From Acinetobacter phage vB_AbaP_Acibel007, in the sequence record KJ473423.1: a stretch of 42,654 nucleotides of DNA; one strand, written 5' to 3'. Shown here piece by piece: positions 1 through 40,415 of the stretch (within the stretch, counting starts at the first letter, position 1; every line of letters begins with the position of its first letter). A program made the position numbers and the translations under genes. The notes under the pieces are model-generated. The model was given only the letters and a program-made list of their open reading frames with translations, searched no databases and was not told the DNA's origin.

Positions 1-12
1 GATTGAGATATG

Positions 13-152
13 ATTGGAAGTGATTGGAGTATCTGATTGGTGAGTATAATGTCAAAAGCTAATTTTGTCTAATATTTCTGAGAGGGTGTCTCCCACTTCC
101 TCGCCCTCGACTTCCCCATAGCACTCATACGTAATCATTTCTTATGGATTGG
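13..152. repeat. Cluster of short TGATTGG / GATTGG direct repeats at the extreme left end
   Basis: TGATTGG occurs at 11-17, 21-27 and 34-40, spaced 10 and 13 bp. Variants sit at 1-7 (GATTGAG) and 146-152 (GGATTGG). No ORF support. The position is like the short-repeat arrays next to the terminal repeats of T7-like genomes. Confidence 0.5.
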
Positions 153-390
153 AATATCTGAGTGCTTATACCTTATCTTATACTGAGTCTTTGAGTCTTC
201 GACTCGTATCATTCATTGATACTCTTTGGTATGTCGCTCATTGTATAGATAGTTTGATAGAGTGTCAACATACTTATTCAACTATTTATCTATTCATTGA
301 TTCGATTCTTATATCCTTGTATAGATTAGAGTGCTTGCCTTTTATGTCTTAACTCTTATGCCTTTTTATGTGTTCATAGGTATATGCCTA

Positions 391-471
391 GATATACAGA
401 TAGTTTTATTGATAGCGATGTAGATAGCTATAAGATAGTTATTAGATAGAGATACTTATAGATATAGATAG
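391..471. repeat. Phased array of (A)GATAG repeats with ~11-12 bp periodicity
   Basis: GATAG starts at 399, 411, 423, 434, 445 and 467, with GATAC/GATAT variants at 451 and 461. That is about one repeat per helical turn in a non-coding AT-rich region. The same AGATAG word occurs twice inside the conserved 25-bp element at 11545 and 22503. Confidence 0.55.
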
Positions 472-519
472 TATTTATTTTATCTATTTATACTCTTTGG
501 TCTTCTCTTTATTCTTTAT

Positions 520-538
520 TCTTATACGTCTATCTTCT
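520..538 (-). promoter_or_regulatory. Inverted copy (19-bp core) of the conserved 25-bp AGAAGATAGACGTATAAGA element
   Basis: The + strand reads TCTTATACGTCTATCTTCT. This is the exact reverse complement of AGAAGATAGACGTATAAGA, which is found at 11548-11566 and 22506-22524. Confidence 0.5.
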
Positions 539-696
539 GATTTTCCTTAATGAATACAATAACTTATCTGATTAGAAACACGAATAAATTGATACTTTAT
601 TAACAATAGATAACATAAGCATAAGTATATAAATCAATAACTTAATAGAATTACTGTAAAGTTATGTAATAATTATAAGATTCTTTAAATAGAGTG

Positions 697-724
697 TTGA
701 CATAGTTTTTAAACTGTATATTAT
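697..724 (+). promoter_or_regulatory. Early sigma70-type promoter P1 (TTGACA-N16-TATTAT)
   Basis: The -35 hexamer TTGACA is at 697-702 and the -10 TATTAT at 719-724, 16 bp apart. The context gtGTTGACA is shared with two downstream promoters. This is analogous to the tandem A1/A2/A3 early promoters of T7. Confidence 0.6.
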
Positions 725-1059: not shown

Positions 1060-1088
1060 TTGACAACAAAATCAGATATGATTAAGAT
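1060..1088 (+). promoter_or_regulatory. Early sigma70-type promoter P3 (TTGACA-N17-TAAGAT)
   Basis: A perfect -35 TTGACA lies at 1060-1065 in gtGTTGACAac context. The -10-like TAAGAT (4/6) is at 1083-1088. Confidence 0.45.
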
Positions 1089-11503: not shown

Positions 11504-11541
11504 CGTGTTTGAGGTTTTATAAGTATATGATTTCAAACACG
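11504..11541 (+). other. 9-bp perfect inverted repeat (CGTGTTTGA / TCAAACACG) hairpin immediately upstream of 25-bp element copy A
   Basis: Bases 11504-11512 are the reverse complement of 11533-11541. The loop is 20 nt. Confidence 0.4.
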
Positions 11542-11544
11542 AAT

Positions 11545-11569
11545 ATTAGAAGATAGACGTATAAGATAG
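11545..11569 (+). promoter_or_regulatory. Conserved 25-bp element ATTAGAAGATAGACGTATAAGATAG, copy A (candidate phage RNAP promoter), 25 nt upstream of the DNA polymerase ATG
   Basis: Identical at 25/25 to 22503-22527. It contains two AGATAG words 13 bp apart, and a TATAAG that resembles the -4..+1 TATAG of T7/SP6/K11-class promoters, with an AT-rich ATTAG at the 5' end. Confidence 0.5.
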
Positions 11570-11593: not shown

Positions 11594-13900
11594 ATGTTTA
11601 AACATAATTTCTTTATCCATGACTATGAAAACCAAAACCATCCTTGGTACGGTTCAATAGCATCACCACATTGTCCTGATAACTATATTGTAGCTACTGG
11701 ATATTGTATTGATGGGGGTGACATACAAGCACATTACTTTGATAGTGATGAAGAAGCTAAGTCACATAAATGGATTGACAAGTTACAAGATTGTAAGATG
11801 TATGTAGCACATAACGCTACGTTTGAAATCCAATGGATGTTACGAACTTATCCTACTCAATTCTTAGATTGGATTAAGAAAGGTGGTAAGGTATTCTGTA
11901 CACAATATGCAGAGTATATGTTAACCCATCAACTTGAGATGTATCCTAAGCTTGAAGACTGTGCTATTAAGTATGGTGGTTCTAAGAAGATTGATGAAGT
12001 TAAATTACTTTGGGAACAAGGTGTATTAACTGCTGACATTGACAAAGCTCTACTGATGAAATACTTAGCAGACCCTAAACTTGGTGACGTAGCGAATACT
12101 CGTCGTGTATGCTTCAGTCAAGTAGCTTTGTTACGTAAACACGGTATGTGGGATATGTTCATGGAACGTATGAACTCACTACTGTTTAACGCTATTGCTA
12201 GTTACCACGGCTTATATGTGGATATGGAAGTAGCTAAGCGTAACCAACAAGCTCAGGAAATTGAAATTGAAAATATTAAAGCGTCCATCTTGGATATGTT
12301 ACCTGCTGATCTTCCTGACGACTTTGAGTTCTCATTCACATCCGCATACCACTTGTCGGCATTCTTGTTCGGAGGTACGATTCAGTACAAAGCGAAAGTA
12401 AGTTATGACCCTATCAAGTATGTGAAGAAAGACTGCTATCAATTTGGTGATAAGTTTGTACCTGTCACTGATGATGAATCTATACTTGTACAGTATGAGC
12501 TTGTGTATGGTGAGGCTTTACGCTTTCTACGTGGTAAGAATGCAGGGCAGTTAAAGATAGTTAAAGTAGAGACTGCTGAGGAACTTCTGAAGTGGGGTGA
12601 TAAACAATACCGCTTCAAAGGTTTACTTGATTTCGATACACTACCTAAGATTGTGTCTGAAGCTTATGTAGGTAAGCGTGCTGAGTTCCGTGGTAAACGA
12701 GAGCTTGTAGATGGTACGCCAATCTACAGTACAGGTAAGGATAGTCTCGATGTACTTGCAGCTCATACGGATGTTGCAAAGCCATTGAAGAACTTAGCTG
12801 CACTTATCAAAGACACCACTACTTATTACCTTGTCGTTGATGACAAAGGTAAAGAGTCGGGTATGCTTCAATTCGTAGAGCCTAACGGTATCATTCATCA
12901 TCAACTTAACAACTGTGCAACTATTACAGGTCGCTTGTCAGGTAGTAAGCCTAACATGCAGAATATTCCTCGTGATGGTACATCTAAAGTTAAGGAGATG
13001 TTTAGCTCACGCTTTGGTGTTAATGGACGTATCGTTGAGGTCGATTATTCTGCTCTTGAAGTTGTAGCCCTAGCCAGTATCTCAGGTGATAAGAACTTGA
13101 TGCGGATGCTGATTGAGGGTATCGACATGCACTGTTATCGTCTAGCTGCAAAGCTTGGTGAAGACTATGAAAGTGTATTCGAGAAATGCCACAACAAAGA
13201 ACACCCTGAGCATAAGCAATACAAGCAATGGCGTACAGATATTAAACCTCGTGCCTTTGCTCACCAATATGGTGCATCTGCTGAGGGTATCGCATTTAGT
13301 ACAGGTTGTACCTTAGAGGATGCACAAGAGTTCAAGAACATTGAGTTTGAATTGTTCCCTGAATCTAACGCATTCCCTGCTAAGTTTGTACGACCGATGG
13401 TAGAGGAAACAGGAAATGCTGCACAACCCATTCGTGAGTTTGATGAAGAAAGTGGTCGTTATAATGTGTATCGTCGGGGTTACTTTCAAGCGAAGTCAGG
13501 TACTTGCTACTCATTCCGTCAATATGATAAATGGGATAAAGAGCTTCGTATTACCGTCAAAGACTACAAAGACACACAGATTGCAAACTACTGGTGTCAA
13601 GGTGAAGCATCCTTTATTGTTCAAGCTGCTTGTGGGCGAGTCATCCGTGAACTCATTAAACGAGATTTTGCAGATGGATTGGTCGTGCCGATCAATACCG
13701 TACACGATGCAATCTACTTGGATTGTGCAACGGAAGCACTTGCTAAAGAATACGGGGCGTTGGTAAGGGATATTATGGAGGCTACTCCTAAGTACCTTGC
13801 TGAAGTTATCCCTGCACTTAAAGATTGGAACTATCACTTAACACCATTCCCTGCTGCTGCTGAATGTGGGGTTAACATGATGAACAAAGAGGATATTTAA
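11594..13900 (+). CDS. DNA polymerase, family A (T7 gp5-like)
   Basis: Pol I motifs TGRLSGSKPNMQNIP (motif A region) and NTVHDAIYLD (motif C). An N-terminal 3'-5' exonuclease-like region. 768 aa. Confidence 0.95.
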   Translation: MFKHNFFIHDYENQNHPWYGSIASPHCPDNYIVATGYCIDGGDIQAHYFDSDEEAKSHKWIDKLQDCKMYVAHNATFEIQWMLRTYPTQFLDWIKKGGKVFCTQYAEYMLTHQLEMYPKLEDCAIKYGGSKKIDEVKLLWEQGVLTADIDKALLMKYLADPKLGDVANTRRVCFSQVALLRKHGMWDMFMERMNSLLFNAIASYHGLYVDMEVAKRNQQAQEIEIENIKASILDMLPADLPDDFEFSFTSAYHLSAFLFGGTIQYKAKVSYDPIKYVKKDCYQFGDKFVPVTDDESILVQYELVYGEALRFLRGKNAGQLKIVKVETAEELLKWGDKQYRFKGLLDFDTLPKIVSEAYVGKRAEFRGKRELVDGTPIYSTGKDSLDVLAAHTDVAKPLKNLAALIKDTTTYYLVVDDKGKESGMLQFVEPNGIIHHQLNNCATITGRLSGSKPNMQNIPRDGTSKVKEMFSSRFGVNGRIVEVDYSALEVVALASISGDKNLMRMLIEGIDMHCYRLAAKLGEDYESVFEKCHNKEHPEHKQYKQWRTDIKPRAFAHQYGASAEGIAFSTGCTLEDAQEFKNIEFELFPESNAFPAKFVRPMVEETGNAAQPIREFDEESGRYNVYRRGYFQAKSGTCYSFRQYDKWDKELRITVKDYKDTQIANYWCQGEASFIVQAACGRVIRELIKRDFADGLVVPINTVHDAIYLDCATEALAKEYGALVRDIMEATPKYLAEVIPALKDWNYHLTPFPAAAECGVNMMNKEDI

Positions 13901-19617: not shown

Positions 19618-22047
19618 ATGGATTTACTACAACGTCAGATTGATTTGGAAGAAGAATACTCAACAGCAAGTTTAGTTGCAGGCCAACAACAGATCATGGA
19701 TGCTTTCAAACAAGGACGAGCTTCTGACGTTGGTTCAGGGCGCTTGTTACTTGCTAAAGCATTCCAAGCTTCTATGGAAGACTTTGAATCATTCTTAGCT
19801 AAACCACTATCAGGTATTGGTGGTAAGTATAAGAAGTTATTAAAGATTGCAAAGCCTGAAGTATTAGTTATGGCGGGTATCCGCGAGGTTATCAATGGCT
19901 GTGCTAACCCTGAACCTATAGTAATGCAGAGCTTCTTACGTCAACTAGGTCGGATTATTGAATCTGAATCTATGTTGGTATGTATGGAGCAAGTATCTGA
20001 TGTTTATACAAATCGTACAGTAGAGTATCTTGATTCAGCAGGTACTAAATCCACTACACACCGCTACCGTACATTCCTTAAAGGCGCACAGAACATGGGT
20101 CTTAACTGGGAACAATGGACTGTAGAGGAACGTATAGGTACTGCCCGTTTACTATTGACTTGTCTTTATGAAAGTACGGGTTTATTCAAGTGGGTAGCTA
20201 ACCGTGGCACTACAGATTCTATGTATTACCTTGTGCCAAGCGAGACTTTAGAGAAACACTTTGGAGAAGTACAGAGTGCTGCTAAGGCTGTAGTTAAATA
20301 TCCACCTATGTTAGTACCGCCAATGGATTGGACTGGACAATACGACGGGGGTTATATGACAGAGTGGTTTCGTTTACACTCTCCTATGTGTGGTATCCGT
20401 TTCATTAAACCTGAACATAAGAAATGGATTATTCAGAACTTAAACAGCGAGCAATCGCTCCCTGTACGTACTGCAATGAACAAAGCACAGTCTGTACCTT
20501 ACCGTGTGAATCAGCGTGTATTGACGATTCTACGTACTGCTACGGCTATGCGTGTGGGTATCCTTGGATTACCTAGTTTCGTTGAAACACCTAAACCTGA
20601 GTTCCCATTACCGCAAGGTTGGGAAAAGGATGCAGCTACACAAGCCGAGCTTGAACAATTCCAATTTTGGAAAACTCAAATGGCTACTTACTACACTAAT
20701 GAGGCTAAACGTAAAGGTCGTCACATGGGTATCCTGTCACGTATCAATGAACTTGTGAAATATCAAGAGGAATCACGCTTATACTTCCCGACATTCATTG
20801 ACTGGCGTGGTCGTTTATACTTCCGTTCTAATCTTAACCCGCAATCATCTGATGCAGTTAAAGGCTGCTTAGAGTTCGCTGAGGGTAAAGTGTTAGGTAA
20901 AGATGGACTGCGTTGGTTAAAGGCGCATGTCGCTAACTGTTGTGGTTTTGATAAACACGACTTAGATACAAAGGTAGCTTGGACAGATGAGAACTGGTCG
21001 CAAATTGAAGATTTTATCAATAACCCCCTTGATGTTGATGCCCCTGAACCTGACACAGCATTTACATTATTGCAAGCTGCTATCGCCTTACAAGAAGCAC
21101 TCGCACTGCCTAATCCCGAACTTTATGTATGTCACGTACCTGTCGCTATGGATGCTACATGCTCAGGCTTACAGCACCTGTCTGCACTCACTCGTGACCC
21201 CGTAGGTAGTTATTACACAAACCTTGTAGATAACAAAGACAATAAAAAGTCTGACATTTACATGCGGGTTGCTGAAGTTGCTAAGAGCATGTTACCTAAG
21301 CTAATTGACGATGTGACAGTAGATCACTTTTGGAAAGTGAATGAGATCACACGTTCTATGGCTAAGAATCCTGTAATGACTTATGTGTACGGTGCAACGC
21401 TACTACGTTGTATTGATACCATTGGTTTAGCCCTATCTGAATCAGGTGTTGAACCTATTAAGAACGATGCAGGTAAAGTTGTATATAGTATGACTGCACT
21501 TGCTACACCTGTAGGGAAAGCTTTACGTAAAGGTGTTGAAGAAACTGTACCTGAATCTGCTAAGATGATGAAGTTCTTACAGACTGTGGTACGTAAACAT
21601 AAAGAGCATTGTATGCGTTGGGTTACCCCTGCGGGTGTTCCTGTAGTTAACTGGGCAGAGGGTTCTATCATCAAAACGCTTAACATCCGTTCTATGGGTG
21701 TCACCTCAGTAACTATGAAAGTAGGTACTAAGCAATATGATACTCGTTCAGCAGCAAACGGTATTGTACCCAACTTTGTACATAGTATGGACGGTTCACA
21801 TCTATGCTTAACTATTAACGAGTTCAATGGGCAGGTTCTACCTATCCACGACTCATTCGCTACCCATCCTAGTGACGTAGGTGCTATGCATGAAGCTTTA
21901 CGTAAGACATTTGCTGATATGTATAAAGCTTATGATATTAACGACTTCTTAACTTTCAATGAAGTCGATACAGAAGAATACGAAGCACCACCTCAAGGTA
22001 ATCTTGACTTGGACTCTGTACTCACAGCTCAATTTATGTTTTGTTAA
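19618..22047 (+). CDS. Single-subunit DNA-directed RNA polymerase (T7-like), 809 aa
   Basis: Catalytic motifs DATCSGLQHLSA (motif A) and PIHDSFATH (motif C). It lies at the end of the replication module directly upstream of the structural genes, which is phiKMV-type order. Confidence 0.95.
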   Translation: MDLLQRQIDLEEEYSTASLVAGQQQIMDAFKQGRASDVGSGRLLLAKAFQASMEDFESFLAKPLSGIGGKYKKLLKIAKPEVLVMAGIREVINGCANPEPIVMQSFLRQLGRIIESESMLVCMEQVSDVYTNRTVEYLDSAGTKSTTHRYRTFLKGAQNMGLNWEQWTVEERIGTARLLLTCLYESTGLFKWVANRGTTDSMYYLVPSETLEKHFGEVQSAAKAVVKYPPMLVPPMDWTGQYDGGYMTEWFRLHSPMCGIRFIKPEHKKWIIQNLNSEQSLPVRTAMNKAQSVPYRVNQRVLTILRTATAMRVGILGLPSFVETPKPEFPLPQGWEKDAATQAELEQFQFWKTQMATYYTNEAKRKGRHMGILSRINELVKYQEESRLYFPTFIDWRGRLYFRSNLNPQSSDAVKGCLEFAEGKVLGKDGLRWLKAHVANCCGFDKHDLDTKVAWTDENWSQIEDFINNPLDVDAPEPDTAFTLLQAAIALQEALALPNPELYVCHVPVAMDATCSGLQHLSALTRDPVGSYYTNLVDNKDNKKSDIYMRVAEVAKSMLPKLIDDVTVDHFWKVNEITRSMAKNPVMTYVYGATLLRCIDTIGLALSESGVEPIKNDAGKVVYSMTALATPVGKALRKGVEETVPESAKMMKFLQTVVRKHKEHCMRWVTPAGVPVVNWAEGSIIKTLNIRSMGVTSVTMKVGTKQYDTRSAANGIVPNFVHSMDGSHLCLTINEFNGQVLPIHDSFATHPSDVGAMHEALRKTFADMYKAYDINDFLTFNEVDTEEYEAPPQGNLDLDSVLTAQFMFC
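22016..22027 (+). promoter_or_regulatory. CTGTACTCACAG motif, copy 4, inside the last codons of the RNAP gene, 37 nt upstream of ATG 22065
   Basis: Exact core followed by CTCAAT. TTGACT sits 9 nt upstream. Confidence 0.45.
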
Positions 22048-22450: not shown

Positions 22451-22502
22451 TGAATAACGTCTGTTCAATAGTGCTACGTAAGTGTATGATTTTAAATAAG
22501 TA

Positions 22503-22527
22503 ATTAGAAGATAGACGTATAAGATAG
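22503..22527 (+). promoter_or_regulatory. Conserved 25-bp element ATTAGAAGATAGACGTATAAGATAG, copy B (candidate late phage promoter), 18 nt upstream of the first late gene
   Basis: Identical to 11545-11569. It is the first element after the RNAP gene and terminator and heads the structural module. That is where a phage-RNAP late promoter is expected. Confidence 0.5.
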
Positions 22528-39723: not shown

Positions 39724-40056
39724 ATGGATTACGGTTTACGTCATGATGGTACACCTAAAGGACGTGGTTTCTTAGGTGAGATTAGTAATACTGATGGTAG
39801 TGTTATGACTGAGTATAGTATTGGTGTAGAGTTTGACGGGGTAGAGGTAGATATACCTACTATTACACCAATGTTAGAACTCTCGGAGATTAAGCAGTTA
39901 CAGGCTATGCGGGATGGTGATGACATACCTCAAGGTATTATCCGTAAGGCTATCCAACATGCACGTATGCGTAAGGATAATGGATTACCATACTTCGCAA
40001 CCGAGGACGACTACCCACTGATTGAAGATATGCGTCGTATCATAGGAGTAGATTAA
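39724..40056 (+). CDS. Hypothetical soluble protein (110 aa) in the position where spanins are expected
   Basis: ATG 39724 with a GGAG SD. No TM segment, signal peptide or lipobox. Confidence 0.5.
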   Translation: MDYGLRHDGTPKGRGFLGEISNTDGSVMTEYSIGVEFDGVEVDIPTITPMLELSEIKQLQAMRDGDDIPQGIIRKAIQHARMRKDNGLPYFATEDDYPLIEDMRRIIGVD

Positions 40057-40415
40057 TGACTAAGAAAGTACAGAGTGCAAGCGTAAGCACGTTAAATGCG
40101 CTACATGAAGCTGTTGCTCGTTATATGCTTATGCGTATTCAGTCTGCATTCCCTGATGAGGATGCTGAACCGCAATACGACGAGGAAACTGGTGATGAGA
40201 TTCCTACATTCTTTATTCCTTTGGCTGCATCTGAGCTTCAGGTATTCGTATCGTTCTTGGATAAGAACAACATCACAGCTACACCTGACGTAGAACACAT
40301 GGCTGAACTGGCTAATGAGTTCACTGAAGACTTACGTTTAGCTCGTGAACAGAAAGCTAAATCAATTGTTAAGGTCAATGAAAACGATGCAGCACTTGCT
40401 GCGTACCTAAGTTAA
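40056..40415 (+). CDS. Putative terminase small subunit (DNA maturase A)
   Basis: 119 aa, helical and acidic. It lies immediately upstream of and coupled to the large terminase, like T7 gp18. Confidence 0.5.
   Translation: MTKKVQSASVSTLNALHEAVARYMLMRIQSAFPDEDAEPQYDEETGDEIPTFFIPLAASELQVFVSFLDKNNITATPDVEHMAELANEFTEDLRLAREQKAKSIVKVNENDAALAAYLS

Follow-up and report, generated by a model that had tools for sequence, protein, structure and literature searches.

The genome of Acinetobacter phage vB_AbaP_Acibel007 (sequence record KJ473423.1) contains a phased array of the short word GATAG at positions 391–471 of the plus strand, close to the left end of its 42,654-nucleotide sequence. The whole of this sequence was analysed and is referred to below as the window. 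The phage has a T7-like genome of the Autographiviridae, Beijerinckvirinae type. Eight of its proteins were screened against Pfam, and these include a single-subunit RNA polymerase (RNAP; PF00940), a small terminase of the T7 gp18 family (TerS; PF11123, window 40056–40415) and a T7-type large terminase (TerL; PF22530). The stop codon that closes the last gene (42654) directly precedes base 1 of the window, all open reading frames (ORFs) in positions 1–1583 are 67 amino acids or shorter, and the first long ORF starts at 1584. The window thus opens with a terminal non-coding control region. The array was called non-coding by an earlier first-pass annotation made from the letters alone, and the one ORF that overlaps it, a frame of 30 residues with a GTG start (331–423), does so with its tail alone.

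The closest public record is the phage vB_MZM_4AB-P (4AB-P), with ∼88% DNA identity across 80% of the first 25 kb of the window. The closest records also include contigs of two A. johnsonii phages, AJO1 and AJO2. Classical Friunavirus phages stand further off, with a TerL identity of ∼63–64%. The genome ends of the window were compared with those of 4AB-P, Bhz21, APK2, APK128, AbTP3phi1, IMG/VR contigs and T7 (V01146).

The array is built from six in-phase GATAG cores that start at positions 399, 411, 423, 434, 445 and 467. The successive spacings are 12, 12, 11, 11 and 22 bp, with the phase slot at 456 unoccupied, and the unit reads roughly TATWA-GATAG-yTAT. The first-pass annotation had described the array as a repeated AGATAG hexamer with two GATAY variants and one repeat per helical turn. 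The six GATAG starts stand, but the full hexamer is found at five of them only, since the site at 411 reads TGATAG. The GATAY variants exist, but there are three rather than two (GATAT at 391, GATAC at 451 and GATAT at 461), and all are out of phase, at 8, 6 and 6 bp from the neighbouring GATA. The periodicity holds on formal analysis, with a best period of 11.25–11.5 bp (phase coherence 0.96–0.94) rather than 10.5 bp, so that one repeat per turn is an approximation to a period of ∼11.4 bp. Because this period is about one base longer than the helical turn, the six sites do not share one face of the helix but wind through roughly half a turn around it. Strand polarity is strict, with six GATAG and no CTATC in positions 335–516.

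The regularity of the array exceeds that expected from base composition. In 2000 dinucleotide-preserving shuffles of window 1–700 or 335–516, in which any 5-mer was counted, neither a chain of five copies at 10–13-bp spacing nor seven non-overlapping copies in 73 bp was obtained. When the 96 bp of the array itself were shuffled, the seven-copy level was reached in 4 of 2000 shuffles and the chain of five in 1 of 2000. The only chains of at least four copies in the 42.6-kb window are those of GATAG (five) and GATTG (four, at 1–35). The AGATAG hexamer is not enriched across the genome (34 found versus 27 ± 5 expected). In the array, Tandem Repeats Finder reports 2.5 copies of an 11-bp unit and 2.3 copies of a 16-bp unit.

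The array DNA contains 74% A+T and abundant TpA steps. It holds a single T4 run and no phased A-tracts, and classical A-tract curvature is unlikely given this single run and a period of 11.4 bp that is out of phase with the helix. For structured RNA, the array gives no Rfam match at E ≤ 1; the leftward transcript folds no better than its shuffles (z = +0.83), and neither does the array as single-stranded DNA (z = −0.68). With neither phased A-tracts nor single-strand structure, the signal appears to reside in the words themselves. Sigma-70-like matches within the array (409–436 and 465–494; 9 of 12 positions) are at the shuffle level (12 found versus 9.8 ± 3.4). The T7 class II pause signal ATCTGTT does not occur in the array, and 4AB-P does not retain its best approximation, CTATCTGTA at 404–396 on the minus strand; this RNAP may respond to a different signal.

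The array is retained in 4AB-P, where the orthologous stretch contains six GATAG in an unbroken chain with spacings of 11, 12, 12, 11 and 12 bp. In the five units that can be aligned between the two phages, the cores are identical at 25 of 25 positions, versus 16 of 27 (59%) for the spacers (Fisher's exact test, p = 2.9 × 10^-4). Indels occur within and around the array in this alignment. The spacers are also dissimilar among the units of one genome, which argues against recent duplication or homogenisation. The pattern indicates that selection acts on the GATAG word and its spacing, and not on the whole unit. Sequence searches extended this comparison little: a blastn search of window 300–720 against phages returned 4AB-P only, an exact 22-mer from the array had no match in IMG/VR, and an 18-mer had 31 metagenome matches, all of which are attributable to chance and have unrelated flanks.

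Equivalent arrays with other words occupy the same position in more distant phages. APK2 carries TTCTTAT at 484, 496, 508, 519 and 530, APK128 and AbTP3phi1 carry TCTAT and CTTAT/TCTTA chains, and Bhz21 carries TCTTA at 64, 77, 88, 98 and 111. The period of the TTCTTAT and TCTTA arrays is 11–13 bp, and the arrays of APK2, APK128, AbTP3phi1 and Bhz21 can be described together as TTCTTATC/TCTTATC arrays. The left ends of these relatives thus agree with the expectation of the first-pass annotation, which had made its reading depend on a repeat array at the corresponding place. Polarity is specific to the lineage. GATAG and CTATC counts are 6 and 0 in the window and in 4AB-P, versus 0 and 4 in Bhz21, which has four CTTATC in addition; the Friunavirus phages have four to five CTTATC and no GATAAG. 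The CTATCT of Bhz21 is the reverse complement of AGATAG, and its polarity is therefore opposite to that of the window and 4AB-P. Since the flanks keep the same orientation, this inversion is easier to reconcile with an architectural role that tolerates either orientation than with a signal for transcription or priming. The word also differs among phages of A. baumannii (GATAG in 4AB-P and CTTATC in APK2), and such lineage specificity on one host species points to a reader protein that is encoded by the phage rather than by the host.

The array lies just outside a predicted direct terminal repeat (DTR). The terminal repeats of APK2 and APK128 have been verified by coverage and Sanger run-off sequencing (PMC8092837, PMC10219094), and that of AbTP3phi1 is a PhageTerm prediction. 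The repeats of these relatives begin with TCTCCCACCTAA, 75–92 bp past the last gene, and end at ...AGC/TTGCCTCT (...AGC/TTGCCTCTATTG), where the slash marks the boundary. Bhz21 and an IMG/VR contig share the boundary motif. The same landmarks in the window predict a terminal repeat of 246 bp at 89–334 (plus strand), which is present as a single, collapsed copy in the assembly. Its predicted left terminus is ...AATATTTCTGAGAGGGTG/TCTCCCAC at 88/89, and its predicted right boundary is GAGTGC/TTGCC, in full GAGTGC/TTGCCTTTTATG, at 334/335. With these limits, the array starts 57 bp to the right of the boundary, with the first TTGACA promoter 226 bp further on, and GATAG also occurs twice within the DTR (248 and 256). 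As written, the assembly begins where the last gene stops rather than at a physical end, and the virion DNA is predicted to start at window 89 and to be ∼246 bp longer than the assembly.

The DTR is flanked by further repeated or conserved elements. A conserved box, AATTTTGTCTAATATTTCTGAGAGGGTG, lies outside the predicted left terminus at 61–88 (plus strand). A similar box (AAATTTGACATATATTTGTGAAGGGG) precedes the verified termini of APK2 and APK128, and another is found in an IMG/VR contig. The terminus of the window can be written as TCTGAG N9 / TCTCCCAC ... TTCCCCATAG, and that of T7 as TCTGAG N7 / TCTCACAG ... TTCCCCCATAG (V01146, 39760–39790), in which the T7 terminal repeat follows TCTGAG, starts with TCTCAC and contains a counterpart of the window's inner motif. 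This similarity suggests that the terminase cut-site context may be conserved across subfamilies of the Autographiviridae. On the right side, two to three boundary repeats of the form TGCCTTTT(T)ATG, at ∼336 and ∼359 with an ATGCC at 384, separate the predicted DTR edge from the array (335–390, plus strand). A TGCCTCTAT(T)G (TGCCTCTATTG) family is repeated two to four times at the DTR boundary of APK2 and APK128 (verified) and of AbTP3phi1 (predicted), which makes the boundary repeats a candidate cut-site or boundary signal. On the other flank of the DTR, a second, SRR-like phased array (GATTGA/GATTGG at 1, 12, 22 and 35; 1–40, plus strand) comes after the last gene and before the predicted repeat, and 4AB-P keeps three of its copies in phase.

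To the right of the array, an 80% A+T stretch at 472–516, pyrimidine-rich on the plus strand, leads to a leftward phage promoter (517–540, minus strand). The minus strand of this stretch corresponds to the start of the predicted leftward transcript (AGAAUAAAGAAUAAAG...), and a tandem of TCTTTAT (506–523) extends from it into the promoter. The stretch is conserved in 4AB-P, Bhz21 and an IMG/VR relative. Positions 541–696 also contain 80% A+T and are followed by three sigma-70-type early promoters (AAAGTGTTGACA...; 697–724, 950–978 and 1060–1088, plus strand). The end module has a conserved order of cut-site box, terminal repeat, TGCCTTTTATG boundary repeats, array, leftward promoter, A+T-rich DNA and host-type early promoters. 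A strong leftward sigma-70-type match, TTGACA-17-TACAAT (11 of 12 positions), is also found inside the predicted repeat at 268–240 on the minus strand, and its TTGACA is kept in 4AB-P. It recalls the leftward E. coli promoter A0 of T7, whose annotated position, 224, falls inside the SRL array of that phage (177–334).

The first-pass annotation had linked the array to a 25-bp conserved element that occurs twice inside the genome. Judged from its sequence and context, this element is a promoter of the phage RNAP, and its activity with that enzyme is predicted. Copy A (11546–11569, plus strand) lies upstream of the DNA polymerase gene (ATG at 11594). Copy B (22504–22527, plus strand) follows the RNAP gene and precedes the structural genes, and is syntenic with paired elements of APK2 at 20915 and 20949. 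An ungapped alignment of the internal copies, TTAGAAGATAGACGTATA/AGATAG, where the slash precedes +1, with the Friunavirus element TTTGAAGTTACACTTATA/GAAGGA has 14 of 18 upstream positions identical; the Friunavirus element occurs three times at syntenic sites of APK2 and APK128. The leftward copy beside the array, TCAGAAGATAGACGTATA/AGAATA, has a predicted start near 522. It differs from the internal copies at four positions, one of which is within −18 to −1, so that the three copies of the window share 17–18 of the 18 bases in this region. All three have TATA at −4 to −1, as in T7 promoters. The array and the leftward promoter on its right are 46 bp apart, and the promoter is directed through the array and the predicted DTR. 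It is present at the same place and in the same orientation in 4AB-P, APK2, APK128, an IMG/VR contig and, as judged by eye, Bhz21. A further upstream block (AAGTnnnTGATT..., ∼−43 to −30) is shared by the three copies (11521–11545, 22479–22503 and 565–541 on the minus strand) and is also found in 4AB-P, Bhz21 and APK2, so that the conserved element is nearer to 45–50 bp than to 25 bp.

The bases at −11 and −10 of the promoters vary together with the RNAP. Each genome's promoters, the leftward one included, carry that genome's own pair of bases. In the alignment of the RNAP (window 19618–22047) to T7 residues ∼739–770, the residue at the position of T7 N748, which in established work on T7 and T3 reads promoter positions −11 and −10, is N in the window (bases AT), K in 4AB-P and both IMG/VR contigs (TC), A in APK2 (TT) and F in Bhz21 (CT). 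The window and 4AB-P, which are ∼88% identical, thus look like a pair separated by a recent switch in RNAP specificity. The two AGATAG words of the internal element fall at −13 to −8 and at +1 to +6, and in promoter terms the former would be the specificity word of the polymerase and the latter the initially transcribed sequence.

The words of the array and of the promoters appear to evolve independently. The pairs of AGATAG 13 bp apart that the first-pass annotation had noticed inside the internal elements are present at 11551/11564 and 22509/22522, as is the further GATAG after copy A (11569). However, all three promoters of 4AB-P read AGTCAG at −13 to −8, and the array of this phage retains its six GATAG; the AGATAG at +1 to +6 is not kept in the leftward copy (AGAATA) or in an IMG/VR relative; and the array of Bhz21 has the opposite polarity. 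Because 4AB-P switched its promoter word and kept its GATAG array, a specificity shared by the two elements is unsupported, and the proposal of the first-pass annotation that one binding specificity serves both is not upheld. A phage promoter inside the array was also considered. The sequence AGATAG-CTATA-AGATAG (422–438) is 2 bp shorter than the AGATAG-ACGTATA-AGATAG of the promoter, and no promoter copy within five mismatches is found in 391–471. Over both strands of the window, the promoter segment from −4 to +6, TATAAGATAG, has only three copies, one at each rightward promoter and one at 429–438 in the array, and the array units may have descended from a promoter-core-like sequence.

Short-repeat arrays that flank the terminal repetition of T7, termed SRL and SRR, were reportedly described by Dunn and Studier in 1983. 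In the T7 sequence (V01146), SRL consists of TAAAG/CCTAAAG every 13 bp at 177–334, after a terminal repeat of 160 bp. The array of the window resembles SRL in being a non-coding array of a 5–7-bp word with 11–13-bp spacing and variable spacers that lies between the right boundary of the terminal repeat and the early promoters. In both phages, a different-looking array is found on the other flank (GATTGG at 1–40 in the window and SRR in T7), and a phage promoter without a downstream gene lies beside the array (phiOL in T7). The two arrays differ in their words, which are unrelated (GATAG versus CCTAAAG), in their copy number (six in phase versus ∼12), in their period (∼11.4 versus 13 bp), in their distance from the repeat boundary (57 bp, with the limits of the repeat taken from homology, versus 15 bp) and in the direction of the adjacent phage promoter (leftward versus rightward). 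CCTAAAG of T7 also occurs inside the terminal repeat (17, 41 and 60) and again in SRR; in the window, GATAG is found twice in the predicted DTR, and the other flank carries four copies of GATTGG, a different word.

The array of the window is, with a probability of about 0.8, this phage's version of the SRL type of terminal-repeat-flanking array. It has many regularly spaced copies on one strand of non-coding DNA, and it belongs to a T7-like genome with the corresponding RNAP and gp18/gp19-type terminase, in which the DTR is placed by homology to relatives with verified DTRs. Equivalent arrays are present in 4AB-P with the same word and in Bhz21, APK2, APK128 and AbTP3phi1 with other words. The SRL/SRR analogy of the first-pass annotation was therefore right in kind and in position, just right of the predicted terminal repeat. 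The Friunavirus phages (APK2, APK128, AbTP3phi1 and ZC2) and Bhz21 share with the window the boundary GC/TTGCCT, the boundary repeats, a phased array with a period of 11–13 bp and strict strand polarity, the leftward promoter and the early promoters, and differ in the plus-strand word of the array (CTTATC/TCTTAT). Neither PMC8092837 nor PMC10219094 appears to describe arrays after the DTR of Friunavirus phages.

A mechanism for the array is proposed by analogy, and we would give it somewhat below even odds. A single oligomeric DNA-binding protein encoded by the phage, most likely the gp18-type TerS, would recognize the six in-phase GATAG cores through several of its subunits, and the DNA would wrap around the oligomer or wind along it. 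Winding is proposed because the cores recur every ∼11.4 bp and not every helical turn. The bound array would mark the repeat boundary ∼60 bp away, where terminase would cut or duplicate the repeat in the concatemer. An oligomeric binder encoded by the phage is suggested by the conserved cores with free spacers, the ∼11.4-bp phase, the strand polarity, the lineage-specific word and the distance of ∼60 bp from the cut site. TerS diverges faster than TerL (40% versus 64% identity to APK2), which is compatible with TerS as the reader but does not discriminate between candidates. A functional analogy is provided by lambda cosB, in which the R sites for the small terminase cluster ∼50–150 bp to one side of the cosN cut site. 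The cosB element differs in having three 16-bp R sites and an IHF site and in belonging to a cos system and not to a terminal repeat.

Several points weigh against these interpretations. TerS as the reader is a guess from context and analogy. To our knowledge, no function has been experimentally assigned to SRL or SRR of T7, and a full-text literature search on SRL/SRR terms found nothing on function. T7-type genomes are ejected left end first and are thus presumably packaged right end first, so that a TerS site of the initiation type would be expected on the other flank; as the left flank would be packaged last, the array would act at termination or at the duplication of the repeat. In the IMG/VR relative L040, which has both the boundary motif and the leftward promoter, the 560 bp that separate the two contain only scattered AGGTAT(C) words and no regular array, which is therefore not indispensable. 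A 20-bp indel alters the distance between array and promoter in the comparison of the window with 4AB-P. The limits of the DTR are placed by homology, and the predicted 246 bp are shorter than the DTRs of 357–428 bp in Friunavirus phages (PMC8092837, PMC10219094).

Two alternatives derive the array from transcription or its control. In one, which is unlikely but far from negligible, the array would be a serial pause site or roadblock, an insulator at the concatemer junction or a set of promoter-core decoys for the phage RNAP. Each array unit resembles the TATA/AGATAG of promoter positions −4 to +6, and the ten-base promoter segment recurs only at 429. The leftward promoter, which the RNAP covariation supports, must transcribe the array, and no terminator-like site separates the two. 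In addition, the T7 RNAP pause signal ATCTGTT sits exactly at the boundary of the T7 terminal repeat and SRL, and the reverse complement of 396–404 matches six of its seven bases. The equivalent P001 promoter of LUZ19 is active experimentally, and its antisense RNA crosses the genome end (PMC10914365). However, T7 class II signals allow no base change, the array units have no GTT and the ATCTGT-like copy is lost in 4AB-P. Pause signals also depend on orientation, yet the array polarity flips in Bhz21 and Friunavirus with the promoter orientation unchanged. The array units lack the −17 to −5 binding domain, the one promoter-like pair in the array is 2 bp too short, and the specificity word of the 4AB-P RNAP has changed with the array unchanged. 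The same change tells against the model of the first-pass annotation, in which one AGATAG regulator binds the array and the paired sites of the internal elements, for example to modulate promoters. This model is highly improbable. Each internal element has the hexamer twice, and two exact hexamers in a 24-bp element are unlikely by simple chance; another copy of the word follows copy A, and AGATAG at +1 to +6 is kept at rightward promoters of 4AB-P, Bhz21 and an IMG/VR relative (L042). The hexamer at −13 to −8, however, is the RNAP specificity word that covaries with the RNAP loop residue (N, K, A or F) and is gone from all three promoters of 4AB-P, where the array is kept. Bhz21 retains the word at +1 to +6 with an array of opposite polarity that is mostly CTTATC, and the leftward and IMG/VR promoters lack it at +1.

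The remaining alternatives concern the DNA itself. In a replication origin, which is quite improbable, the promoter, as in T7 origins, at 540–517 and the A+T-rich DNA would prime leftward synthesis, and the array would be an opening or priming zone or a set of iterons. The layout of a promoter with adjacent A+T-rich DNA suits such a role, with 80% A+T in the candidate unwinding regions at 472–516 and 541–696 and 74% A+T with many TpA steps in the array. In T7, the end-proximal phiOL and phiOR promoters have no downstream genes in the annotation and have been linked to secondary origins. An unwinding zone needs composition, however, and not perfectly kept GATAG cores with free spacers, and strand-specific priming sites are hard to square with a polarity that is inverted between lineages. 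The array shares with iterons the direct same-strand repeats in non-coding A+T-rich DNA, but iterons are typically 17–22 bp long, have a spacing of ∼2 helical turns and are bound by a cognate Rep encoded nearby, whereas the array has 5-bp cores in 11–12-bp units. No initiator gene was recognized among the eight proteins screened, and T7-type replication, which is promoter-primed, requires none. The iteron-like origin of the first-pass annotation is thus not borne out. A neutral minisatellite, which would arise by slippage or unequal exchange in dispensable terminal DNA with a word that drifts by lineage, is also improbable. It would account for the variation of word, copy number and even presence of the array among relatives (with no regular array in L040), for the indels in and around the array relative to 4AB-P and for the Tandem Repeats Finder periods of 11 and 16 bp. 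It does not account for the complete identity of orthologous cores beside spacers at 59%, and homogenisation cannot yield identical cores between the dissimilar spacers of one genome. A phase of 11–12 bp that two genomes hold, and other lineages too despite their different words, is likewise difficult for a neutral repeat, as is the strict strand polarity. The SRL-type array remains the preferred reading.

The array and the leftward promoter may also form a single conserved end-maturation device, which is a rather doubtful extension of the terminase mechanism. RNAP that starts near 522 would meet the terminase-loaded array at the edge of the repeat, and this encounter would mark the site at which the concatemer is cut and the repeat duplicated. 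The P001 promoter of LUZ19, a phage of the phiKMV group, resembles the promoter at 540–517 in being a genus-conserved, left-end promoter of the phage RNAP that is antisense to all genes. It is an experimentally mapped promoter conserved in 15 Phikmvvirus species (PMC10914365), and the passages of that paper that were consulted mention no array. P001 differs in promoter sequence and subfamily from the predicted promoter at 540–517. If the device is real, it would provide a first testable function for SRL-type arrays, which have been unexplained since the T7 sequence of 1983, and would link them to the antisense left-end promoter of phiKMV-like phages.

Terminal-repeat arrays of the T7 kind have been known for forty years, and the combination of conserved cores, free spacers, a kept phase and a word that changes with the lineage offers a natural experiment for finding the reader protein. 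The most useful by-products of the analysis are the predicted genome ends (a left end at window 89 and a 246-bp repeat), the definition of the promoter, together with its covariation with the RNAP, and the conserved leftward copy beside the array. The promoter definition and the specificity switch, between AT with N and TC with K at −11/−10, are useful for annotation and for orthogonal expression parts. Phages of this kind are candidates for therapy, and correct ends and essential cis elements matter for their engineering.

The polymerase genes of the window and of 4AB-P differ in their continuity. In 4AB-P (PP091972; 15871–19061 and 24487–27499), the RNAP and DNA polymerase genes are each annotated as two coding sequences around an inserted ORF. 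The inserted ORF within the polymerase is an HNH endonuclease, and the RNAP and DNA polymerase genes of the window are uninterrupted.

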